Source: Janibacter hoylei PVAS-1
GTDB taxonomy: Bacteria; Actinomycetota; Actinomycetes; Actinomycetales; Dermatophilaceae
Assembly: GCF_000297495.1 (NCBI RefSeq)
Contig: NZ_ALWX01000068.1
Coordinates: forward strand, 1 to 64,000
Length of the DNA: 64,000 bases
Direction of reading: 5' to 3'
The translations under genes were made by a program, and so were the position numbers. A model generated the notes under the pieces. That model did not search any database and had not been told where the DNA came from. It saw only the letters and a program-made list of their open reading frames with translations. Of the stretch, positions 4 through 56,129 are shown in pieces; position 1 is the first letter of the stretch, and each line of letters begins with the position of its first letter.

Positions 4-816
4 TCACGCCGCGAGCGATAGCCGCCCAGAACGTGACTCGGTCCTGCCGCCACGCGACCGAGGGCCGTCCCGGTGACGGGATCTGTCCTCGATACGCACG
101 GACCCGCTTCTGCCGTGGGGTTGTTCCCATCGCTTCACCTCTCGATCAAGGTGTTGCGACGACCGGTTGAATTCGCCTTGCGAGCCTCGGTCGCTGTGCA
201 CGATGCACCCGGCCACGTCGGCGCCGTCAGCGGCGCGGCGTGCGACGGCTGAGTTCAGCGCGGTGACAGCCAGGTGCGACGTCATGCGTGAGTCGATGCT
301 GTAGCCCACGATCCGCCCGGAGCAGGCGTCCTTGATCGCGCAGAGGTACAGCTTGCCCTCACCGGTCCAGTGCTCAGTAATGTCGGTCAGCCACACCCGA
401 TTCGGTGCCGCCGCGCTGGTGAAGTCATGCGTGACGCGGCCCACCTCGTCCTCGACCGCGAGCCGGCCATCGTGCACCGGTGGTCCGGGCCGCGGACGGG
501 CCGAGCGCTTCTTCCCGAAGATCGACCACCAGGCGTTCGCTGAGCAGATCCGCCACGCCGTGCGAGCCGACATGCCCGTCCCGGCGTCGGCGGCTTCCTC
601 GTGGAGGTATCGGTAACCGAAGGCGGGGTCATCACGGTGAGCGTCGAACAACGCGTTCGCGCGATGCGCCCACGCCAGCTCGGAGGCGGTGACCGGGGAC
701 GTGAGCCACCGGTAGTACTGCGTACGACACAACTTCAGCACCCGGCACGTCACCGACACAGGCACCCGGATCCGGGCTCCCTTGCCAGCCAGCTCGCGGA
801 CGAGCGGGAACATCAT
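4..816 (-). CDS. IS3-family transposase OrfB (DDE integrase core). The C-terminal ~55 aa are atypical, and the third catalytic E is not recognisable.
   Basis: 'VWLTDITEH...GKLYLCAIKDACSGRIVGYSIDSRM...HSDRGSQ' matches the D..D part of the DDE core. The sequence after HSDRGSQ diverges from the expected SMSRKGN..DNA..ESFF pattern. The copy is probably 3'-degenerate or truncated. Confidence 0.7.
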   Translation of the reverse strand: MMFPLVRELAGKGARIRVPVSVTCRVLKLCRTQYYRWLTSPVTASELAWAHRANALFDAHRDDPAFGYRYLHEEAADAGTGMSARTAWRICSANAWWSIFGKKRSARPRPGPPVHDGRLAVEDEVGRVTHDFTSAAAPNRVWLTDITEHWTGEGKLYLCAIKDACSGRIVGYSIDSRMTSHLAVTALNSAVARRAADGADVAGCIVHSDRGSQGEFNRSSQHLDREVKRWEQPHGRSGSVRIEDRSRHRDGPRSRGGRTESRSGRLSLAA

Positions 817-1142
817 TTTGGGGGCAGGTTCGCCTGCGACAAGTACGCCGCCGCGCGCCGCAACACCTCGTTCTCTTGCTCCAGCAATCGGTTACGGCGC
901 TCGAGCTCACGCAGCTCGGCTGCCTGCTCACTCGTCACGGCCGGCGCGGTGCCGTCCTCGACGTCGGCGCGTTTGAGCCAGTTGGTCAGGCACGACTCGC
1001 TGATCCCGAAGTCAGCAGCAATCTGCTTCAACTGCTGACCCGGCTCACGGTTGCGAGCGACCCGCACGACATCGTCACGAAACTCTTTGGGGTAGGGCTT
1101 GGGCACGGTGTCCATCCTTCCAGCAGCGTCCCTCGACGCCAC
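813..1142 (-). CDS. IS3-family transposase OrfA (HTH).
   Basis: 109 aa. Contains '...LKQIAADFGISESCLTNWLKR...' HTH and a coiled-coil 'ELRELERRNRLLEQENEVLRRAAAYL' typical of IS3 OrfA. Its stop overlaps the orfB ATG (CCCCCAAAATGATG). Confidence 0.8.
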   Translation of the reverse strand: MASRDAAGRMDTVPKPYPKEFRDDVVRVARNREPGQQLKQIAADFGISESCLTNWLKRADVEDGTAPAVTSEQAAELRELERRNRLLEQENEVLRRAAAYLSQANLPPK

Positions 1143-1238: not shown

Positions 1239-3206
1239 TCAGGGTGCCTGGTCCGCGTCGTCGGCTGGGTCATCTACCGTCGGTTCGGACGTTGACGGCC
1301 CTGTGGCTGGCCATCTCTCGGACACGGCCCAGGTCGTGAGTGCAGCGAGTCGCTCCTCGATGGCCTTAGCGGTCCAGCTGGGCCATTTCTCGGCGACCTC
1401 GCGTTCGCTCGCCAAGGCTGCTGTGAAGTAGCACGGGGGCTGCGTCTGACCGGTCTTGCCGCGTTTCTCGACGTACTCCTTGTTGCTGTAGGAGCTGTTG
1501 TCCATCGTCAGAATCAAGTTGCCCAGCGAATGCGTGTGACTCTTTCGCTCATCGTCACTGAAGATGTCCCGCCAAGACCCCGCGTAAGTGGGCGACGCTT
1601 TGTCGATGTCTTTCGGGTTGCGGGGCAGGATGTGCTCGGTGGTCTTCTCAAAGTTCTTCGTGAAGGTCTCGAACGGCTTCAGTACGGCGACCGTCTTCCC
1701 CTTCGACAGTTCGTACTCATAGAGGACATACTTGTGGGAGCTCCGCACATACCAGTTGGTCTCCACCGTGAGGTTGTTTCGCACGAGGCTGTCCGGTGCG
1801 TACTCCCAGGTCAGTGAACCGACTCGCGTGACGGCGTCACCGATTGAGGTCGATCCCTTAAAGACCTGATGCGCCAGACCAGCCAGAGCCTGCCTGCCCG
1901 CGCCGGATCTACGCGCGCAGATGGCAAAAACGCGTGCCGCGAAGGTTTCGCACGCGACGAGTACATCTGCGTAGCCGGCGGCGTTGCCGGGGGACGCCAG
2001 ACGGGTCGCGAACAGTAGGGGGAGGAACTGAGCAACGACCCCGCTGCGGACAAGAGCTTGCGAGTTCCTGGACACGCGAGCGATGTCCGCGGGGTCGGCT
2101 GTCGACGATGCGAATGCTGTTGAGGTCCCCTCCAGATCGCGAAGGAACGCAGAGCATTGCCAGAGCTGGTCGACGTAGTCGGAGACGTCGTCGAACAGCC
2201 GCTGCCGCATTGCTTCTGGGTCGGTCCTGTCGCCTGCATCGTCATCGCGGAGGCGTTGAGAGCCGTGAACGTAGTGCGTACGTGGGAACTTCTTCTTGAT
2301 CGACTCAGACCGCTCCCACAGGCGGATGTTCGGCTCCTGGGTGGCTAGCCAGTGTGAACGGAGGAGTCGGTCCTCGCTGTCGGACGGGAGTCCAGCCAGG
2401 TTCTTGAACACGCCCGACCATCGTTCGTTGATCAGATCCGCGAGCTTCGTTCTGCGAACGTCGTCGAGCTGGGACGCGAGGTAGAGAAGGTAATTCTTGA
2501 TCTTCTCAAGATCGGTGAGGAGGATCCCGCGGTCGTTGAGCGTCTCGAAGATGACGCCCACTTCGGCAGTCGACTTGATCGGATAGACAAGCAACTGGAG
2601 ACCGGACGTGAGGCGGCGCCGGAGGTCCAGCAGGCGCCCTGCGGCGACTTCAGGTGCTGCACCCTCCACGAGTTCCACGAGTCGCTGGTCAAAGAAGGTC
2701 GCGGCACGGAGCAACCTGCGTGCAGACGCGATGGGGTCACTGGGTGCCGGAAGGTCTTCAATGATGTGATCGCGCCAGAAGCCTCGGAGGTCTGTCCCTA
2801 GTTGGAGCCGTGGCTCCTGCGTGCCCAGAAGTTGAATGCGCACGAGGGCGCCGATCTGACGCTTGGCTTCGAGTACGCCATCAGCCAGTCCCTCGTCCGT
2901 GACGCCCTGAATCTGGTCGAGTGCCTTCGCCAGACGAGTCATGAGGATCGTTACGGTCGTGAGACGCTGCTGACCATCGACGACCTCGTACTCCTTCAGA
3001 GTCTCGCCAGCTGACGTGGTCTTCTTATGTCCGGTCTCTCGCAACACCAGCGTGCCGGCGAAATGTTCGCCATCGCCAAGCAGGTCAAGGTCGCCCCACA
3101 GGTCGCCAAGTTGCTTGTCAGTCCAAGCGTACGGCCGCTGGTAGTCCGCAATGACGAAGGTCTTGTCGTCGAGCGCCTTTTTCAGCGACTCGTGTTCCTG
3201 CGGCAT
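1239..3206 (-). CDS. DUF262 (ParB-like, DGQQR) plus DUF1524 (His-Me/HNH-like) nuclease. This is a GmrSD-family type IV restriction-like protein.
   Basis: N-terminal 'IADYQRPYAWTDKQLGDLW...DGQQRLTT' (DUF262). C-terminal '...HILPRNP...HSLGNLILT' (DUF1524). The start was chosen at M58 of the 712-aa ORF (ATG at 3204-3206) because the upstream extension overlaps the macro gene. Confidence 0.75.
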   Translation of the reverse strand: MPQEHESLKKALDDKTFVIADYQRPYAWTDKQLGDLWGDLDLLGDGEHFAGTLVLRETGHKKTTSAGETLKEYEVVDGQQRLTTVTILMTRLAKALDQIQGVTDEGLADGVLEAKRQIGALVRIQLLGTQEPRLQLGTDLRGFWRDHIIEDLPAPSDPIASARRLLRAATFFDQRLVELVEGAAPEVAAGRLLDLRRRLTSGLQLLVYPIKSTAEVGVIFETLNDRGILLTDLEKIKNYLLYLASQLDDVRRTKLADLINERWSGVFKNLAGLPSDSEDRLLRSHWLATQEPNIRLWERSESIKKKFPRTHYVHGSQRLRDDDAGDRTDPEAMRQRLFDDVSDYVDQLWQCSAFLRDLEGTSTAFASSTADPADIARVSRNSQALVRSGVVAQFLPLLFATRLASPGNAAGYADVLVACETFAARVFAICARRSGAGRQALAGLAHQVFKGSTSIGDAVTRVGSLTWEYAPDSLVRNNLTVETNWYVRSSHKYVLYEYELSKGKTVAVLKPFETFTKNFEKTTEHILPRNPKDIDKASPTYAGSWRDIFSDDERKSHTHSLGNLILTMDNSSYSNKEYVEKRGKTGQTQPPCYFTAALASEREVAEKWPSWTAKAIEERLAALTTWAVSERWPATGPSTSEPTVDDPADDADQAP

Positions 3207-3207
3207 G

Positions 3208-3663
3208 TCAGTGAATCCAATCTTCGGCTTGGCTCGCCAGCGAGCGAGCGATCGCGGCATAGGTGGGCTGGCCGAATGCGACCAGGCGGGCTTCATCAAC
3301 AGCACTGGACGCAGCGTTGAGCGCCTCCACCGCCGCGGCGATTGCGTCTTCCTTCGGCCAGCCGTAGGTATCAGCACTGACTAGGGGGAAGGCGACACTG
3401 CGGGCACCGAGCTCGTCCGCGTGCCCCAAGGCACGCGTGTAGCGCGAGGTCAGGTGGTCTCGGTCGGTCTCGCCTGCCATCGTCCATCCGGTGTCGCCGG
3501 CGTCCAGTCCGTTGGGAAAGCGGGTGATGTAGTCCTCGGGGATCGCCGAGCCACCAGCCGTATGGATCGCCCCATCGACGCCTCGTATTCGCCGGTTTGC
3601 CGCGTTGACGACCGCATCCACCTCCTGGGTGGTGATGTCTCCCTCTACGACGGTGATCAACAC
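3208..3663 (-). CDS. Stand-alone macro domain protein (151 aa).
   Basis: 'VVEGDITTQEVDAVVNAANRRIRGVDGAIHTAGG' and '[29 protein letters not shown]' are macro-domain motifs. Its stop (TGA at 3208-3210) overlaps the GmrSD ATG as ATGA, implying translational coupling. Confidence 0.8.
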   Translation of the reverse strand: MLITVVEGDITTQEVDAVVNAANRRIRGVDGAIHTAGGSAIPEDYITRFPNGLDAGDTGWTMAGETDRDHLTSRYTRALGHADELGARSVAFPLVSADTYGWPKEDAIAAAVEALNAASSAVDEARLVAFGQPTYAAIARSLASQAEDWIH

Positions 3664-3860
3664 GCCGGCAATACTAGTGGGAACCGCCGACAGCGCGAGG
3701 ACGAGTTTGCGTTTCCCGAGCCTTCCTTCTTGACCACACCGCGCGTCCTCTTGGGCAGGTCAATCGGTGGCTGGTAGTCGTCGATGCGGTCGTAGACGTC
3801 GTAGTTGAGACTGCGCTCGGCGAGTTCTATATGCCCTTGGGTGGCGGCGACCTTGATCAG
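3664..3860 (-). pseudogene. Start-less ORF fragment immediately upstream of the macro gene, likely a degraded upstream gene.
   Basis: The minus-strand frame reads 'LNLIKVAATQGHIELAERSLNYDVYDRIDDYQPPIDLPKRTRGVVKKEG...' and is preceded by an in-frame stop. There is no ATG or GTG start. It ends at the macro start. Confidence 0.3.
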
Positions 3861-4800
3861 GTTGAGTCAGTTGACCTCGTCCTACGGCGCTGCCTCACAG
3901 GCGATCCCTGAGGCCACCTGGCGGTGTCGAGGTGGGACTGGGCTTGGCTGCGACAGCGACGATGTGGGCGCATGCGCTCGACGATTTCGTGGAGCTGGTT
4001 GCCCTCGGAGAGCCACGCCCACCCGTCCTTGCGGGGGTTGCTGATCGGCTTCCTGGCCACGAGACTGAGCTCGAGCTTCAGGCCGTTGATCCCGTCCGCT
4101 CCGCAAGCTTGGCCTCGGGCTCTCAGGAGGCGGAAGAGAGCTACGTCGACGAGGAGACCGTGCAACGTATAGCCGTTGTCGACAACGTTCTCCGGCGTGT
4201 TCAGGCAGCTTCTCGGTGCATGAGTTCGCCCGTGCGAGGGTCCGCGCCGAACCAGTCCCGGATCGTGCTCAGGTCGGTGCGCTCCCGGGACCGCTTGATG
4301 CCGGACGCCGCGGCGAGGTTGCGGTTGAAGACGCGCTCGGGGTGGAGCGAGAGATCGTCGACGGTGCGCCACGGGCCCGAGGTGCGGGTCGTTTCTCCTG
4401 CGGTTACAACGCCGCGTCTGCGGCTTCCCAGGCACCTGCTCCTTCGGTGTGTGCTCATCCTCGTTTCCAAGGTCACGAGCCTCTATAGGGCCGAGTGCGG
4501 TTCAAAGGTCGACGCGCAGGTCACCATAGCTTCGACGGTGGCGACCGCGCTATCGACATGATCGGCTGAAAGGTCGTCTAGACAGGGTGCGCAGAGTCCC
4601 TGTCCTCGACCGCCCGTGTGACTGCTGCCCCTCGTCGAGTGGCGCTGTACGGCCCTTCCTATTGGGTGGCAGGAGGCACGGTTCATGCCCGAGATGGACC
4701 TACCAGCCGAAGCACCCGTGACCGAGGCTTCACCCCGTCTGGAGACGGACGACGAGTTCGCAGCGGCGTAAGGCGAGTGATGGCGGAGGAGATCGGTGCA
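3857..4800. other. Decayed, lower-GC region carrying only short ORF fragments on both strands, with no intact gene.
   Basis: Fragments such as '...SNPRKDGWAWLSEGNQLHEIVERM...' and '...ERVFNRNLAAASGIKRSRERTDLSTIRDWFGADPRTGELMHREAA' have no recognisable full domain. GC is visibly lower than in the core region. Confidence 0.3.
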
Positions 4801-4821: not shown

Positions 4822-5412
4822 TCAAGCGGAATCGAGGGCTTGCTGAGCAACACTTCGAGATGAGGCCCACGTCTTGTGTGCCATACGAAGGCCGAGCCGC
4901 TGCGACATCCGAGGGTGCTCGCGCTCCATTCGTGTGTAGGCCGACTTTAAGTTGGTCGTGTACAGCAGATCGCGCAGGAGCAGGACCTCGAACGCGGCCG
5001 CCTCGACGAAGTCCACCGTCTTGGTGTACCCGACGACTGCCCTGGCGTTGGTGGCCCGACAGAGGTCTATGAGCTCTTGATCCTTGGCGGCCATCGTCGA
5101 GCACGAGGCGAAGAACAAGACCTTGTCCTCACACCTGCTCCCGAGAATCTCAGCGAACTCCTTGATCGTCACGCCTTCATCGCCGAACCAGAGCTGCCCA
5201 CGAGCGCCGTGACAGACGAAGTAGCCGATGGGCATCGAGGTGAGCCGACGCCATTTCTTTGCATAGAACTCGAGGGCGTCCCTTGTCGCGACGTTGCGGT
5301 GGACGTAGGGGGTCCCTTCGCAGTCCTGGAGAAGGCCGAGCACTGGCTCGACGGTCCGTCGGTCGCGGGCAGGGCCCCATTCACCTTCGAAGCAGTAGAT
5401 CCCTTGTGCCAT
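4822..5412 (-). CDS. Hypothetical protein with a caspase/hemoglobinase-fold-like (clan CD) His...Cys arrangement.
   Basis: 196 aa. A beta-strand then HG ('IGYFVCHGARG') is followed ~35 aa later by a hydrophobic strand plus Cys ('KVLFFASCSTM'). This mirrors the caspase 'SHG ... QACRG' order. It lies in the lower-GC island. Confidence 0.3.
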   Translation of the reverse strand: MAQGIYCFEGEWGPARDRRTVEPVLGLLQDCEGTPYVHRNVATRDALEFYAKKWRRLTSMPIGYFVCHGARGQLWFGDEGVTIKEFAEILGSRCEDKVLFFASCSTMAAKDQELIDLCRATNARAVVGYTKTVDFVEAAAFEVLLLRDLLYTTNLKSAYTRMEREHPRMSQRLGLRMAHKTWASSRSVAQQALDSA

Positions 5413-5516: not shown

Positions 5517-6386
5517 ATGTTCGATCAGCGGGTCGAGGCAGCGTGGAGGGACTTCCACGAGCGTCTCGTGGTGGCCATCGAACGGTTCGGCGAGGGCGAG
5601 ATCTTCCGGATCTCACTCGACCGCACGAGCGTCTACGAGGCGGGGGACGCTCCCTTCGTCGAGCTCAACGTCGTCCTGCCGCAGGTGCTCGTCGAGGTCG
5701 CCTCCAACATGACCTTGGCTCGTACGTGGCGCATGAGTCGCACCCAGCAGGCGAGGGTCCGCCGGCTGGGCATGGCGTGCCCGACGCGGCAGGAGCCGAC
5801 CTACGGCAAGTACTACGACATCACGCGGCCCGACGAGGCGGCCGCTGCGGTTATCACGGCACTGCGCGAAGGGTTCGGTGTCCTCGACCCGGCGCTCCTC
5901 ACCAGCCCGAGCCCCGTCCTGACTCCACCCACGCGCGAGCCCTGGGAGACCAGCCCGCTGCTCGCCGACGGCGCCCGACCCACCAGCCGGGCAGAGGTCA
6001 ATGCCCTCGTCGCCATCGCCCTTCGCCCGCTCGTGGGTGAGGTGGACACCACGGATGACGGTGACGCCATCGTCCACTTCCCCGGCACGTCGATCCTGGT
6101 GCGGCCGTCGAGGCGCGCACCGCGCATCCGCATGTGCTGCACGCTGCCGCACCACGAGCGTGACCTCGACGAGGCCACCCGGATCGCCCAGCGGCTCAAC
6201 GGGTGCATGCACGCGCTCAAGTTCGTCGTGCTCGACGACGAGGACTTCCTCGTCATGGTCGACATGCTCGCCAGACCCTTCGTGCCCGAGCACGTGCTGG
6301 AGCACGTGGAGCACCTCTTCCGGATCATCGACGGCTGGGAGGACGAGTTCCTCCCCGAGGCGCGCGATCGACAGGAGACGACGTGA
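5517..6386 (+). CDS. Tandem YbjN/T3SS-chaperone-like ('TY-Chap') domain protein.
   Basis: 289 aa from ATG 5517. It has two similar halves with an acidic C-terminus. Its stop overlaps the GTG of the next gene (GTGA), indicating an operon. Confidence 0.4.
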   Translation: MFDQRVEAAWRDFHERLVVAIERFGEGEIFRISLDRTSVYEAGDAPFVELNVVLPQVLVEVASNMTLARTWRMSRTQQARVRRLGMACPTRQEPTYGKYYDITRPDEAAAAVITALREGFGVLDPALLTSPSPVLTPPTREPWETSPLLADGARPTSRAEVNALVAIALRPLVGEVDTTDDGDAIVHFPGTSILVRPSRRAPRIRMCCTLPHHERDLDEATRIAQRLNGCMHALKFVVLDDEDFLVMVDMLARPFVPEHVLEHVEHLFRIIDGWEDEFLPEARDRQETT

Positions 6387-7849
6387 GCGAAGCCACCACC
6401 ACGACGAGACTGCGCTGCGACCGCTGCGGGTCCCACGCCACCCACCAGCGCGTCATGGGGATGCCCACCGCCGAGACGGCAGAGCAGGTCGCGGCCACGC
6501 CGTGGCAGCGGCTCGGTGGGTGTCTGATCGTGCCGGGCATGTGGACGGTCGAGTGCCTGACCTGCGGTCAGCGAGAGGCGGTCGAAGGGGGCCCAGCCGA
6601 CCTCATGCCGGCGCCGCCACCCGACTGCACCGTCGCCCGGGCGATCACCCGGTACGCCGCTCGCTGCCGCGAAAAGCTCGGCCAGGCGACGACCTCCGTC
6701 GTCTCCCACGCCGGGCTGTGGCTGCTTCTCGCCTCCGTCGCTGAGCACGTCACCGGCGACGACCGCGCCGTGCTCGAGGAGATCCTTGGCATGCCGGTCG
6801 GGGAGGCGAGTGCTGCCGCACGTCGGCTGCTCGGCGCACCGCACCCGACCCTCGCTGCTGCGGCTGGAGCCTGGGTTGCGGGGGATGCGGTGACACCCGT
6901 CGGGGTGGAGCGGCCGATCCCTGACCAGGCCCGGCTGGATGCGTGGGCGTCAGAGCGCACACGCGGACTCATCCCGCAGTTCCCACTCGAGGTCACCGAG
7001 CTGACCCGCATCGTGCTGGCGACGGCGCTCGTCCTCGAGCCACAGTGGACCGAGCAGCTCACCACCGGTGGCGGCGGCCAGTGGTTGAGGCTCGGTGGGG
7101 GCCTGCAGACGATCGTCGAGACTGCCGCTGCCGGGGCCGTCCTCGTGGCCAAGCCGCACTCCGAGGACGGCATCGACGTCATCAGCGTGCGCGCTCACCC
7201 GAGGGTCGCTCCGGCGCAGGTCTGGCAGGCCGTCGACGAAGTCGTGGCGCTGCTGGACGACGGCGCGCTGTGGCACGGCGAGCGACCGCACGGGTTGCCG
7301 CGCCGGGGATTCGGCTGGCGGTCCAGGGCAGCGCGGGTGCAGATGACCGACTTGGCGCGCGCAGAGTTGCCGACCGACGCCTGGGGGAGGCCGCAGCAGT
7401 GGCGCAGCCAGGTGCCGTCGTGGTCGGCTCAGGAGACGCTCGACCTCACCGAGGCGCCCGGCGTCGCCGAGGCCGGCCACGCGATCCTGCCCGACGAGCC
7501 TGGCGCGGCGACGAGCTGCGTGCAGTCGGTGCGGGCGGAGTACGACGCCGACGGGTTTCGGGCGGCTGCGCTCACGGCGCTGGACCGGGTTGGGTCCGCG
7601 CCGAGCTTCGAGCAGGTGGACGTGGAGCGGGTCGATCTCGACTTCCGTGCCCCGCACGCCGTCGTAGCCGTCGCTCGCGGGGGAGCGTGGGAGGGCGTGC
7701 CGCTCGTCAGCGCGTGGGTGCCCGGACCCAACTACATGGACTCCGACGGGGAAGCCCTGGAGCTGCTGGCAGAGACCGACCCGGACGAGGCTGCCGCGCT
7801 GTCGGCCTACAAGGAGGCGCGGATGCGGGAGCGTGGCGAGATCGTGTGA
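6383..7849 (+). CDS. Serpin-fold protein with an N-terminal C4 zinc-ribbon.
   Basis: N-terminal 'RCDRCGSH...ECLTCGQ'. The body matches the serpin layout. 'SHAGLWLLLASVAEHVTGDDRAVLEEILG' is helix A. 'ATALVLEPQW' resembles NAIYFKGKW. The hinge-like 'DGFRAAALTAL' is followed by 'FRAPHAVVAVARG...VPLVSAWV', which resembles FxxDHPFLFxI...LFMGRV. Confidence 0.5.
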   Translation: MSEATTTTRLRCDRCGSHATHQRVMGMPTAETAEQVAATPWQRLGGCLIVPGMWTVECLTCGQREAVEGGPADLMPAPPPDCTVARAITRYAARCREKLGQATTSVVSHAGLWLLLASVAEHVTGDDRAVLEEILGMPVGEASAAARRLLGAPHPTLAAAAGAWVAGDAVTPVGVERPIPDQARLDAWASERTRGLIPQFPLEVTELTRIVLATALVLEPQWTEQLTTGGGGQWLRLGGGLQTIVETAAAGAVLVAKPHSEDGIDVISVRAHPRVAPAQVWQAVDEVVALLDDGALWHGERPHGLPRRGFGWRSRAARVQMTDLARAELPTDAWGRPQQWRSQVPSWSAQETLDLTEAPGVAEAGHAILPDEPGAATSCVQSVRAEYDADGFRAAALTALDRVGSAPSFEQVDVERVDLDFRAPHAVVAVARGGAWEGVPLVSAWVPGPNYMDSDGEALELLAETDPDEAAALSAYKEARMRERGEIV

Positions 7850-7882
7850 TGGTCGCTCACCAGCAGCCCAGGCCGGTCGTAG

Positions 7883-8523
7883 ATGTGCGACGTTGAGTCC
7901 ATGGACGTCCTGCCGATGTTCCCCCTCGGGACGGTGCTGTTGCCCGGGCAGCCCCTGCCGCTGCAGGTGTTCGAGCCGCGCTACCTGACGATGCTGCGCG
8001 ATGTCGCGGACGGCGACGGGCGCTTCGGGGTAGTGCTCATCGATCGGGGCTTCGAGGTCGGTGGGGAAATCAGCGCTTCGCTGTCGGGTGCGTCGCGAGC
8101 ATCGAGCAGGTCCGGCCGATGGGCGGAGGTCGGGTCGGTCTCATCGCTCGCGGGCAGGAGCGCATCGAGGTCGCCCGGTGGCTGCCCGACGATCCCTATC
8201 CGCGAGCCGAGATCACGCGCCTGCCGGACCTGACGTGGGCCGACGGCGACGCCCCGCGCCTGGCCGAGACCGAGCGGACCGTGCGACGCGCGCTCACGGT
8301 GATGAGCGAGTACCGCTCGCCGGCCCTGCCCGCGGACATCGAGCTGGCCGACGACCCGGTCACCCGCAGCTGGCAGTTGGCATGGATCGCCCAGCTCGGC
8401 GCCCTGGACCAGCTCACGCTGCTGCGGTCGTCGTCCCTCGGCGAGCTGCTCGAGACCACCGCGCGCCTCACGAGCGAAGCCCTCGAACTGCTGCCGCTCC
8501 AGTCACCCGACAATCCCGACTGA
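7883..8523 (+). CDS. LON N-terminal (substrate-binding) domain protein, interrupted by one frameshift near 8085.
   Basis: 'MFPLGTVLLPGQPLPLQVFEPRYLTMLRD' is the LON-N signature. The protein continues in another frame ('...RVGLIARGQERIEVARWLPDDPYPRAEI...') after a G-run (gtggggaa). Confidence 0.65.
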
Positions 8524-8559: not shown

Positions 8560-10050
8560 TCAGCCAGCGTCGACGAAAAGGGGCCGCGACGCCTCACCCG
8601 AGGCCAGCACCTCACCCATCGTGCGGTACTCACCCCGCGCGAGCACCTCGTCGAGCTTCGCCTGGTCGACGAGGTGCGCCGACTGCAGCTCACCACCGGC
8701 GAACTGCAGCAGCGACCCGACCGGCAGCGCCAGGTAGGGGCCAAAGGTGCGGTCGCACGCCTGCAGCTCGCCCGCGTCGATGTTGCGCAGCGCGCGCTCC
8801 TCGTCGGTCTGGGCCGACGGTGTGACGATCGACCACCCGGACCGCCGCGTGCCGTCGGTGAGGGTGTCCGTGCCGGGATCGAGCTCGTAGCGCTCCATGA
8901 TGAAGGCGCTGGGCTCACCCAGGACGATCGCGTCGAGCGCGGCCGACTGGATCGCGATGGTCTCGGTGGCCCTGACCGGCGCCGCGTCGACGCCTGCCTG
9001 GCGAGCCTTTTGCACCTGCTCGACCTGCCAGATGAGGGCGCCGGTGAGGTCGTCGGTCGTCCTCTCCCGATAGGCCTCGGGAGAGGAGAAGTCCGGCGTC
9101 GTGACGAGGAGGACGCCCCCTTCGTCCGTGGCCTCGAGCGTGTACGGCGCATACGACATCTGCAGCCGGGCGCCCGGCTCCAGCGGACCGGCCGCGCCGG
9201 CGGCGAAGGCCATGAGGACGCTGCCGGCGAGCGGCGCGAGCTGCGGGTGGGTCCGCGCGCGCAGGGTCACGCCGTCGACGACCTCTTCGATCGTCTCGGT
9301 GGTGGGTGCCGCCGGGCTCCTCTCGCCGATGGGAGCGCCCGCGCCGCGACCGTCGGCGTCGAGCAGTTGCCGGTCCGCATCGGTGACGGTGCCATCGGCG
9401 GACCGCGTCGCCCAGGCGCCGACGAAGCGGCCGCCGGCGACCCGCGCCACCGTCCCCGTGGGCAGCGTGAGCAGGGGCACGAGGTAGGGGGCCGACTGCA
9501 CGAGCAGCCCGGCGAGGACCTCAACCTCCTTGTTGCGCAGGAAGGACTTCTCGGCCGTGCGCACCAGCCAGCCGGAGTCGTCCTCCGACGTCGACGGGCG
9601 CCGCACGAGGACGAGCTCGTCGGTCCGGCCCTTTTCGACCACCGTCAGGGCCGCCTTGGTGAAGTGCACCCGCATCGACAGGTCGATCTCCTCGCCGTCG
9701 ACGTCCGCGCGGCTGAGCACGTCCGCCTGGGCGGCCTCGATCCACAGCGCGAGCGTCAGGTCGTCGGTCGTGGCGTCGACGAAGTCTTCCGCCGCGTAGT
9801 CCGGCGCCGTGATCGCGAACTGCGTCTCCCGGTCCTGCCGCAGCTGCCAGAAGGTGAAGCCCACACCGGTCCGCAGCCGGTCGCGGGTCTCGCCGGCCTC
9901 CTGGTAGCGGCGGTAGCGGTCGACGACCGGCCGGGCGAAGGGAGCCACCTCACCCGCGCAGCGCAGCGTCGCCACGGTGCCACCACCGAGGTCGACGGCG
10001 GGCTGGGGCTCGGGCTGGGTCGACGGGAGGGGGAGCGGGAAGGTCGTCAT
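8560..10050 (-). CDS. Hypothetical protein (496 aa) with internal ~150-aa repeats.
   Basis: Repeated motif 'SGW.V.T.....L.N.....L......PYL.LP.G'. No recognisable catalytic motifs. Confidence 0.5.
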   Translation of the reverse strand: MTTFPLPLPSTQPEPQPAVDLGGGTVATLRCAGEVAPFARPVVDRYRRYQEAGETRDRLRTGVGFTFWQLRQDRETQFAITAPDYAAEDFVDATTDDLTLALWIEAAQADVLSRADVDGEEIDLSMRVHFTKAALTVVEKGRTDELVLVRRPSTSEDDSGWLVRTAEKSFLRNKEVEVLAGLLVQSAPYLVPLLTLPTGTVARVAGGRFVGAWATRSADGTVTDADRQLLDADGRGAGAPIGERSPAAPTTETIEEVVDGVTLRARTHPQLAPLAGSVLMAFAAGAAGPLEPGARLQMSYAPYTLEATDEGGVLLVTTPDFSSPEAYRERTTDDLTGALIWQVEQVQKARQAGVDAAPVRATETIAIQSAALDAIVLGEPSAFIMERYELDPGTDTLTDGTRRSGWSIVTPSAQTDEERALRNIDAGELQACDRTFGPYLALPVGSLLQFAGGELQSAHLVDQAKLDEVLARGEYRTMGEVLASGEASRPLFVDAG

Positions 10051-55614: not shown

Positions 55615-56129
55615 ATGGTGCCCATGCCACAGCTCACCGCAGTCCGGGGCGACATCACGACCCAGCAGGTCGACGCGATCGTCAACGCCGCCAACTCCGC
55701 CATGCGTGGTGGTGGGGGAGTCGACGGGGGCGATCCACCGCGCGGGTGGCCCGGCCGTGCTCGAGGACTGCATCGCCCGCTTCCCCCGCGGCCTGGCCAC
55801 GGGTGATGCGGGGTGGACGACGGCAGGGGACCTCCCTTCGCGCTGGGTGATCCACACGGTCGGGCCCAACCACGCTGCGGGACAACGCGATCGCTCGCTG
55901 CTCGTCTCGTGCTACCGCCGCTGCCTCGAGGTGGCCGACGAGCTGGGGGGCGCGCTCGGTCGCCTTCCCGCTCGTCAGCGCCGGCATCTACGGCTGGCCC
56001 AAGGACGACGCGATCGCCGCAGCGGTGGAGACGATCCGGTCGGCACCGACGGCCGTCGAGGAGGCGCGCATCGTCGCCTTCGACGCGGCCACCTTCGCAC
56101 AGGTGGAAAAAAGTGCAAGGTTCAACTAA
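55615..56129 (+). CDS. Macro domain protein (MacroD/YmdB-like), with two G-run frameshifts (~55720, ~55945).
   Basis: '[29 protein letters not shown]' then '[14 protein letters not shown]...WVIHTVGPN...' then '[27 protein letters not shown]' read in three frames. It is a paralog of the island macro gene at 3208..3663. Confidence 0.75.

Follow-up and report, generated by a model that had tools for sequence, protein, structure and literature searches.

What might a chaperone-like gene, a zinc-ribbon serpin gene and a LON N-terminal (LON-N) gene, lying side by side on one strand in Janibacter hoylei PVAS-1, do together? A preliminary description of the locus had proposed that these genes, here called g1, g2 and g3, form a protease-regulation module. 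To our knowledge, little has been established about what serpins do in bacteria, and the characterised members are secreted or target host proteases. We analysed the locus within a 64-kb window, the whole stretch of DNA under study, together with its counterparts in related genomes. The same-strand linkage was borne out, and the GC3 values of the three ORFs (0.88–0.93) are those usual for real genes in the host genome; the exception is g3, whose reading frame is interrupted. None of the three encodes a protease domain, and a promoter and terminator scan returned no sites.

Table 1. Features of the locus, with coordinates in the 64-kb window.
Feature	Coordinates	Strand	Basis
DUF6642, minimal caspase/CHAT-like protein, divergent from g1, possible partner	4822..5412	-	
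g1, tandem TY-chaperone protein (TY-Chap3 + TY-Chap1), 289 aa	5517..6386	+	Pfam
g2, zinc-ribbon serpin-fold protein, 488 aa, GTG start	6383..7849	+	
N-terminal zinc ribbon of g2, residues 9–66 (C12, C15, C47, C58, C61)	6407..6580	+	
Serpin hinge, reactive-centre-like loop and s1C of g2, residues 388–424	7544..7654	+	
C-terminal two-helix extension of g2, residues 450–488	7730..7846	+	Janibacter clade only (alignment)
g3, stand-alone LON N-terminal (substrate-binding) domain gene, frameshifted	7883..8523	+	

The g2 product, one residue longer than the 487 first reported, yielded nothing useful in direct scans of Pfam, NCBIfam or PADLOC, and the Serpin family (PF00079) did not match g2 itself at E ≤ 1. 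PF00079 did match 24 of 45 aligned g2 homologs at E ≤ 0.01 (best 8.3e-7), and the g2 family profile recovered more than 60 serpins from the PDB (best 4e-5). The AlphaFold2 model (pLDDT 86.9, pTM 0.83) agrees with the serpin fold, which has three β-sheets, about nine helices and the order s5A–hinge–reactive-centre loop–s1C–s4B–s5B. A Foldseek search with this model gave 390 matches at E ≤ 0.001, the best 50 of which are all serpins (top 4.7e-16); the closest are cleaved or latent forms. The predicted serpin body is established by profile and fold, not by a direct Pfam match. The preliminary description had named a missing profile hit and a non-serpin fold as findings that would speak against a serpin, and of these only the former was obtained, for the g2 sequence itself. 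The model also contains an inserted region of roughly 60–70 residues (about 295–360) with lower confidence, and helices at 454–465 and 467–484 in the C-terminal extension. With evenly balanced confidence, and jointly with the functional explanation favoured below, we consider g2 a candidate member of an actinobacterial clade of cytoplasmic serpin-fold proteins that is highly divergent and has not been described before.

The N-terminus of g2 forms a predicted zinc ribbon, in which two CxxC knuckles (C12/C15 and C58/C61) sit at β-hairpin turns. Both knuckles and C47 are invariant in 60/60 full-length homologs, in agreement with the zinc-ribbon–serpin combination originally described. AlphaFold2 places the ribbon in two β-hairpins (9–12/20–25 and 54–58/64–66) with pLDDT above 90. 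Because the N-terminus is a zinc ribbon and lacks a signal peptide, g2 is probably cytoplasmic. The Cys4(+1) ribbon occurs in the Janibacter and Mycobacteriaceae members and is missing from those of Nocardioides and Pimelobacter. The ribbon-less Nocardioides members lie in an ordinary backbone context (Ser/Thr kinase, MFS, Fur, KatG), although these neighbourhoods are indicative only, as the crude ORF caller took antisense ORFs in some loci.

The g2 strings quoted earlier are all present: DGFRAAALTAL (residues 390–400), FRAPHAVV (421–428) and VPLVSAWV (439–446). Across 115 homologs, the hinge follows the pattern G-F-x-A-A-A-[VIL]-T, with P15 Gly, P14 Phe, P11 Ala and P8 Thr each in 115/115, P12 Ala in 114 and P10 Ala in 113, while variability within the hinge–loop stretch peaks at P6–P2 and P3′. 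When a serpin loop inserts into β-sheet A, the even hinge positions (P14, P12, P10 and P8) become buried. The inhibitory consensus from P17 to P9 reads E-x-G-T-E-A-A-A-A (Hopkins 1993; Irving 2000, as quoted in PMC8233489). The g2 family departs from it in having Phe at P14, where inhibitory serpins have Thr or Ser, and Val, Ile or Leu in place of Ala at P9; P17 is Glu in 58/115 homologs and Ala in g2. By canonical spacing, P1 is Gly, Ser or Ala in the family, an unusual bait residue, and no Asp, Arg or Asn fitting the P1 preference of clan CD proteases is conserved in the loop among the 115 homologs. By alignment count, the segment from the hinge to RPH (equivalent to RPF) is 8 residues longer in g2 than in α1-antitrypsin. 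In the AlphaFold2 model, residues 401–411 are disordered (pLDDT about 33) and residues 391–399 form a strand hairpinned to 380–387 (s5A), so that the hinge is already inserted; if real, this arrangement would correspond to a relaxed, non-inhibitory state.

The gene preceding g2 had been described as a tandem YbjN chaperone-like protein, of which the tandem chaperone character stands. TY-Chap3 (PF22552) matches residues 9–128 of g1 (58.1 bits, 1.8e-15) and TY-Chap1 (PF22551) matches residues 160–279 (57.1 bits, 2e-15), both above the Pfam gathering cut-off of 27 bits; the YbjN family itself (PF10722) had no match in g1 at E ≤ 1. The TY-Chap domains are related to YbjN only at the level of the T3SS-chaperone/YbjN superfamily (PMC9503650). 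Homologs with 64–96% identity to g1 occur only in Janibacter-like genomes. As reported earlier, g1 and g2 overlap by 4 bp (GTGA): the g1 stop TGA (6384–6386) lies on the g2 start GTG (6383–6385), with AGGAG 5 nt upstream of this start. The same 4-bp coupling is kept in four more Janibacter loci (L008/9, L010/13, L011 and L012), and g1 and g2 are predicted to be a translationally coupled pair that recurs in this genus. Beyond Janibacter, the linkage of TY-Chap to serpins rests on sub-threshold matches: two Mycobacteriaceae loci have TY-Chap3-like neighbours beside zinc-ribbon serpins (E 2.8e-4 and 6.7e-5; hhalign probability 8%), and a 210-aa Mycobacterium neighbour has no similarity to g1 by BLAST, its profile evidence being sub-threshold.

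The third gene, g3, begins in frame 2 (7883/7901 to about 8065) and continues in frame 1 (8065–8523), split by an apparent 1-bp deletion in the G-run at 8063–8066, where three relatives have one G more; in a 98%-identical strain the gene is intact and encodes 213 aa. The LON_substr_bdg domain (PF02190) is therefore spread over two frames in the window and matches the repaired g3 only (102 bits, 5.4e-29), so that the stand-alone LON domain of the preliminary description is genuine in identity and broken here. The shared strand, the g2–g3 gap of 33–51 bp found here and in the 98% relative, and the convincing domain match after repair would fit a three-gene operon whose chaperone, serpin and LON-N products together control a Lon-type protease. 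This reading is contradicted by synteny: among relatives, the LON-N gene lies 50 bp, 330 bp, 1.8 kb or 7.3 kb from the serpin, with unrelated genes in between, and it remains beside the Imm33-like and D-Ser-dehydratase-like genes on its right. In J. indicus CP062789 no LON-N gene lies within 8 kb of the serpin, nor is one present near the serpin in L003, L004 and L021, or beside any non-Janibacter homolog examined. The frameshift of g3 in the window also weighs against the three-gene reading. On synteny we reject LON-N as the serpin partner; g3 appears to be an unrelated backbone flank outside the g1–g2 unit, and we regard the three-gene module as very improbable.

On the opposite side of g1, the divergent DUF6642 gene encodes a protein with a predicted caspase-hemoglobinase fold, in which a His-Gly and a Cys follow hydrophobic strands as in clan CD; this His-Cys dyad is invariant. 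A search of the accessible literature found no paper on the family, and the caspase/CHAT-like assignment is made here. DUF6642 adjoins TY-Chap and the serpin in 3/4 Janibacter loci with upstream sequence available. The window holds a different variant (31–34% identity, opposite strand), and the adjacency thus persists despite replacement. L011 lacks DUF6642, as does every Mycobacteriaceae or Nocardioides serpin locus examined, and the DUF6642 genes of Kribbella and of plasmid-like contigs have no serpin or TY-Chap nearby.

The wider surroundings place g1–g2 in a variable, defence-rich, mobile defence-type island. The window contains an IS3 transposase, and GmrSD and a Macro remnant lie upstream of g1. 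The loci of relatives carry type I R-M, Wadjet, PIN/MazE, prophage genes and ARG-DSPc with Nudix-NrtR, as well as an OLD-family nuclease adjoining a UvrD-type helicase, a pair that we read as Gabija-like. A foreign origin of g1 and g2 by composition is a weak case, their GC3 (0.88–0.90) being near that of the backbone (0.93); a clear drop is confined to GmrSD, Macro and DUF6642 (0.74–0.77). Zinc-ribbon serpins adjoin ARG-DSPc and Nudix-NrtR in Mycobacteriaceae and J. cremeus (L001, L015, L016 and L003). Across the 64-kb window neither ARG-DSPc nor NrtR had a match at 1e-5, and TY-Chap and the Macro remnant are the only components of an ARG-centric system found there. When 92 neighbour ORFs were scanned against Pfam, no partner common to all serpin loci was found, and no protease gene is consistently linked to the serpin across genera.

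We hypothesize, as the most likely reading and at an evenly poised level of belief, that g2 is a serpin of a conflict island and acts inside the cell as a protease trap. A protease would cut the exposed g2 loop, upon which the hinge would insert as strand s4A; insertion would either inactivate the protease or allow the cleavage event to be sensed. The coupled chaperone g1 could hold or stabilise either the serpin in its metastable form or the extended loop. The protease that is targeted would be encoded outside the operon, and may be foreign, from a phage or mobile element, or be the neighbouring CHAT-like DUF6642. A less probable alternative, which we consider somewhat unlikely, is that g2 is a non-inhibitory serpin-fold protein with its hinge constitutively inserted or half-inserted, serving as a stable scaffold, a ligand or peptide binder, or a zinc-ribbon-tethered nucleic-acid or ribosome factor. 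Non-protease roles are known for serpins such as ovalbumin, HSP47, PEDF and those of the MENT type. The modelled pairing of 391–399 with s5A points this way, as does the unlinked state of any cognate protease gene, and the bulky invariant P14 Phe and the 8 extra loop residues could permit insertion without cleavage. Spence et al. noted divergent actinobacterial serpins that are possibly non-inhibitory. However, a permanently inserted strand would not require invariant Ala at P12–P10 and Thr at P8 beside a hypervariable distal loop, and AlphaFold is unreliable at choosing between serpin conformers.

The recurring DUF6642 neighbour raises another possibility, in which DUF6642 would be the effector, the zinc-ribbon serpin its inhibitor or antidote and the TY-chaperone an adaptor, in a toxin/antitoxin-like or immunity role. 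Caspases are inhibited by serpins such as CrmA, and the adjacency at most of the Janibacter loci with upstream sequence, which outlasts the swap of DUF6642 variant in the window, argues for such a pairing. Against it stand the restriction of the association to one genus, the serpin loci that lack DUF6642, the DUF6642 genes without serpin or TY-Chap, and the lack of a loop residue suited to clan CD; we judge this arrangement improbable. Equally doubtful in our estimation is its extension, that the three genes constitute a bacterial immunity module, an accessory of actinobacterial ADP-ribose-centred defence islands, in which the serpin would silence DUF6642 until infection or trap a phage protease. 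If true, that module would parallel, in prokaryotes, the caspase/CrmA-type protease–serpin arms race. On the favoured protease-trap reading, the recurrence of a clade of cytoplasmic zinc-ribbon serpins, coupled to a chaperone, in defence and ADP-ribose-system islands would suggest that bacterial conflict systems include intracellular protease trapping, for which g1 and g2 offer a tractable pair for testing. A search for literature linking serpins with zinc ribbons, or with conflict or defence systems, turned up no relevant paper.

Compared with the prokaryotic inhibitory serpins thermopin (1mtp), tengpin (2pee/2pef) and miropin (5ncs), and Groups S–U of Spence et al. 2021, g2 is too divergent for a PF00079 match, carries a zinc ribbon in place of a signal peptide, and has the invariant P14 Phe, a loop about 8 residues longer, the 60–70-residue inserted region and the C-terminal helical extension; its gene is also predicted to be translationally coupled to a chaperone gene. 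Unlike g2, PAI-1 (latent 1c5g, cleaved 3eox) is a secreted vertebrate protein with P1 Arg, and any analogy to vitronectin is tentative. The TY-Chap1/2/3 chaperones of ARG-centric anti-ADP-ribosylation systems were defined by Iyer, Burroughs, Anantharaman and Aravind 2022 (PMC9503650), a paper with no mention of serpins. The locus resembles these systems in the TY-Chap3 and TY-Chap1 domains of g1, in the upstream Macro remnant and GmrSD, and in the ARG-DSPc and Nudix-NrtR beside zinc-ribbon serpin homologs, but the window is without an ARG, phosphatase or NrtR/WYL gene. MENT, a chromatin-associated serpin with an added nucleic-acid-binding element, provides a precedent for a module-tethered serpin; it uses an M-loop/AT-hook where g2 has a predicted zinc ribbon. 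CrmA and the clade-B serpins, cross-class caspase inhibitors, are intracellular and act in host–parasite conflict, a likeness that would become relevant if the target of g2 were the caspase-like DUF6642 or a phage protease.

The middle gene of the three (see table) encodes a serpin-fold protein. On its own, this protein has no serpin match in Pfam, NCBIfam or PADLOC; its best single-sequence PDB match is PAI-1 (E 0.059), in an alignment that falls exactly on two motifs, N-x-W-V-x-x-x-T-x-G-x-I and the hinge. A database search returned 127 homologs, with identities of 58–98% in Janibacter, about 45–50% in Mycobacteriaceae and about 42–49% in Nocardioides, Pimelobacter and Flexivirga. Almost every homolog has a hypothetical annotation; precomputed PF00079 (Pfam serpin) assignments exist for a minority, and two have UniRef "serpin" names. 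Searching the PDB with a 45-sequence family profile, we recovered more than 60 serpins (best 4e-5), the only non-serpin matches being two XpsE ATPase entries with E near 0.4–0.5. PF00079 is matched by 24 of the 45 profile sequences (best 8.3e-7). With the AlphaFold2 model built from the 45-sequence alignment (pLDDT 86.9, pTM 0.83), Foldseek gave 390 PDB matches at E ≤ 0.001, of which the best 50 are all serpins, headed by cleaved PAI-1 (4.7e-16). Together, profile, PF00079 matches in relatives, model and structural search bear out the serpin call of the preliminary description at the level of the fold: they return both a serpin HMM match in the family and a serpin fold, the reverse of the combination it had named as contrary evidence.

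Features of the window and of the compared loci of relatives (L numbers); ZnR, zinc ribbon
Feature	Position	Strand	Remarks
IS3-type transposase, two ORFs	4-1142	-	window left end
GmrSD/HEC-06-type restriction protein	1239-3377	-	window left end
Macro domain ORF, truncated-looking	3208-3663	-	matches only C-terminal part of Pfam profile; adjoins GmrSD
Possibly degraded sequence	3700-4800		only overlapping ORFs, no family match, lower G+C
DUF6642	4822-5412	-	upstream of tandem TY-Chap gene, transcribed divergently from it
Tandem TY-Chap protein	5517-6386	+	289 aa
Zinc-ribbon serpin-fold protein	6383-7849	+	488 aa, GTG start
LON N-domain gene	7883-8523	+	split over two frames; LON_substr_bdg after repair
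Imm33-like protein	8560-10050	-	496 aa, two Imm33-like domains
Second Macro-like region	55633-56114	+	near 55.6-56.1 kb; profile matched in three overlapping pieces
X, small unannotated family	L004 7567-7998; L054 7867-8337		143-156 aa, 50% identical
Extra serpin copy, ZnR-linker remnant	L010 3868-4098		J. limosus
Extra serpin remnant, residues 232-304	L016 8640-8852		Mycobacteriaceae MAG

In the model, residues 9–66 form two β-hairpins with CxxC knuckles (C12/C15 and C58/C61) plus C47, and these five cysteines are unchanged in 60 of 60 full-length homologs. The zinc ribbon is found in about 82 of 116 aligned members and is absent from those of Nocardioides and Pimelobacter (about 380 aa). Since it stands in place of any signal peptide, the protein is cytoplasmic. 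Members of the Janibacter clade also have a two-helix C-terminal extension. Across 115 members, the hinge has Gly at P15, Phe at P14, Ala at P11 and Thr at P8 without exception, Ala at P12 (114) and P10 (113), and Val, Ile or Leu at P9. In PAI-1, P14 tolerates neutral substitutions and not charged ones. Measured against ExGTEAAAA, the consensus of inhibitory serpins given in PMC8233489, the family keeps the pattern and departs from it only in its bulky, unvarying Phe at P14 and its hydrophobic residue at P9. Variability of the hinge–loop stretch is highest at P6–P2 and P3′ (2–3.2 bits, 115 members); canonical spacing places Gly, Ser or Ala at P1, and P2′ is Pro in 108 of 115. An F-D-R-P-H motif is the counterpart of the serpin R-P-F motif, and by our count on the alignment the stretch between it and the hinge exceeds that of α1-antitrypsin by 8 residues. 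Serpin fold, invariant insertion-type hinge, variable and probably exposed loop and cytoplasmic zinc-ribbon fusion are combined in one protein.

All three reading frames lie on the plus strand, with third-position G+C of 0.88–0.93, typical of real genes in this genome (about 70% G+C). The reported GTGA overlap is present, the TGA stop of the TY-Chap gene (6384–6386) sharing bases with the serpin GTG start (6383–6385), with AGGAG 5 nt upstream; the protein strings quoted earlier all occur in the translated serpin gene, whose product length was given as 487 aa, one residue short. The first protein, described as tandem YbjN-like, which is right at superfamily level, matches Pfam TY-Chap3 (residues 9–128) and TY-Chap1 (160–279), both at about 57–58 bits (cut-off 27). 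Iyer et al. 2022 (PMC9503650) defined TY-Chap families as peptide-binding chaperones of the T3SS-chaperone/YbjN superfamily, occurring in conflict systems centred on ADP-ribosylglycohydrolase (ARG). Counting the window, five distinct Janibacter loci have TY-Chap directly 5′ of the serpin gene (the others are L008/9, L010/13, L011 and L012), with identities of 65–98% for TY-Chap and 73–98% for the serpin. Our own ORF calls give a 4-bp overlap between the pair in both L011 and L012, and a TY-Chap gene split into two ORFs in L010/13. The arrangement is not universal: in J. indicus CP062789 an unrelated 143-aa member of family X lies directly 5′ of the zinc-ribbon serpin, at 2 bp, and in J. anophelis, where the serpin is absent, an X homolog directly 3′ of TY-Chap shares 4 bp with it. 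The three genes (TY-Chap, X and serpin) look like a shuffling set of interchangeable partners. In two Mycobacteriaceae loci, a 210–240-aa protein adjoins the zinc-ribbon serpin (upstream in L015, downstream in L023); its sub-threshold TY-Chap3 matches (E 2.8e-4 and 6.7e-5, on complementary profile halves) and a collinear hhalign alignment to the tandem TY-Chap family (E 0.004, probability only 8%) are suggestive of a TY-Chap3-like neighbour.

The third gene does not belong with this pair. Its repaired product matches LON_substr_bdg (5.4e-29); the coding sequence is divided between two frames, one for the N-terminal 55 codons (7901–8065, or from 7883), the other for the remainder (8065–8523). 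Alignment with three Janibacter relatives places a 1-bp deletion, a single missing G, in the G-run at 8063–8066, and a 98%-identical strain has an intact 213-aa counterpart, so the window copy is a pseudogene unless the missing base is a sequencing error in the homopolymer. The proposal that all three genes form a protease-regulation module fails on position: LON-N lies 50 bp from the serpin in the window and L008, 330 bp in L011, 1.8 kb in L010 with two genes inserted between, and 7.3 kb in L012, and was not found near the serpin in L003, L004, L021 or any other genus examined. It retains its right-hand neighbours, an Imm33-like tandem protein and a D-Ser-dehydratase-like gene, and delimits a variable region on the right; it is not a partner of the serpin. 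In Janibacter the 496-aa Imm33-like protein is conserved beside LON-N, with a duplicate copy in Janibacter sp. Soil728 (L011).

The serpin gene is coupled to a predicted peptide-binding chaperone in an island context. Upstream in the window, GC3 is clearly lower (0.74–0.77) in GmrSD, the Macro ORF and DUF6642. Elsewhere, zinc-ribbon serpins neighbour type I R-M, DUF4917, MazE/PIN and Wadjet (L004), prophage genes and RhuM (L006), or an OLD-family nuclease beside a UvrD-type helicase (L010), which we read as a Gabija-like pair; type I R-M adjoins the serpin in 2 of 10 loci scanned. ARG-DSPc and Nudix-NrtR adjoin it in Mycobacteriaceae and J. cremeus (L001, L015, L016, L003), and NrtR without ARG-DSPc in L023 and L047; a search of the window gave no ARG or NrtR gene. 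Ribbon-less Nocardioides members have a conserved backbone context with a Ser/Thr kinase, MFS transporter, Fur and KatG. In many Nocardioides loci (L022–L048), ribbon-less members appear, from our own ORF calls, to lie just 5′ of a gene for a membrane Ser/Thr kinase (the gap is about 9 bp in L025, L032 and L045), and in Pimelobacter (L002/L044) the serpin gene overlaps its neighbours on both sides by 4 bp, GXWXG/DUF4334 downstream and HNH_repeat upstream. The remnants in L010 and L016, each a few kb from an intact gene, hint at turnover of the serpin gene. Proteins of 98% identity (P0001; L008, L009) belong to assemblies that bear a Helicobacter pylori label (DUHN55_37640); their G+C and neighbours are Janibacter-like, so these contigs are probably contaminants or mislabelled.

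DUF6642, a widespread family with 897 cluster representatives at E ≤ 1e-3 for which our literature search found no paper, has invariant Glu8, Trp11, His67-Gly68 and Cys103, and is predicted with high confidence to adopt a caspase/CHAT-like fold with a His67-Gly68 and Cys103 dyad. In J. limosus and J. indicus CGMCC 1.12511 it lies directly 5′ of TY-Chap and serpin and shares their strand; the window copy is a different variant (31–34% identity) in opposite orientation. Looked for in both directions, the link to the serpin is absent outside Janibacter. The Janibacter adjacency weakly favours a caspase–serpin reading.

In the model, residues 391–399 form a strand hairpinned to s5A, residues 401–411 are disordered (pLDDT 33), and the structures that match the model best are in the cleaved or latent state. 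We read these features as a sign of selection on the inserted state, meaning that the family is insertion-competent, and do not take them as proof of the resting conformation. No consistently linked protease gene was found across the serpin loci examined. Most likely, the protein would either trap an intracellular protease as its suicide substrate or sense cleavage by it; this protease may be foreign or the neighbouring CHAT-like DUF6642. TY-Chap would bind an extended serpin segment, either the loop or the N-terminal region, so that the metastable form is stabilised or presented. The main rival explanation is a non-inhibitory serpin scaffold whose hinge is constitutively inserted.

Spence et al. 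2021 give a general discussion of cytoplasmic and divergent serpins in actinobacteria. Our literature search found no account of a serpin clade fused to a zinc ribbon, of a hinge with an invariant P14 Phe, of serpins coupled to TY-chaperones, or of serpins linked to defence or ADP-ribose systems in prokaryotes. ARG-DSPc and Nudix-NrtR, next to homologs outside the window, are the core of the system of Iyer et al. The proposed TY-Chap–serpin interaction may be likened to class I T3SS chaperones, which hold extended effector segments, and to vitronectin, which stabilises PAI-1.
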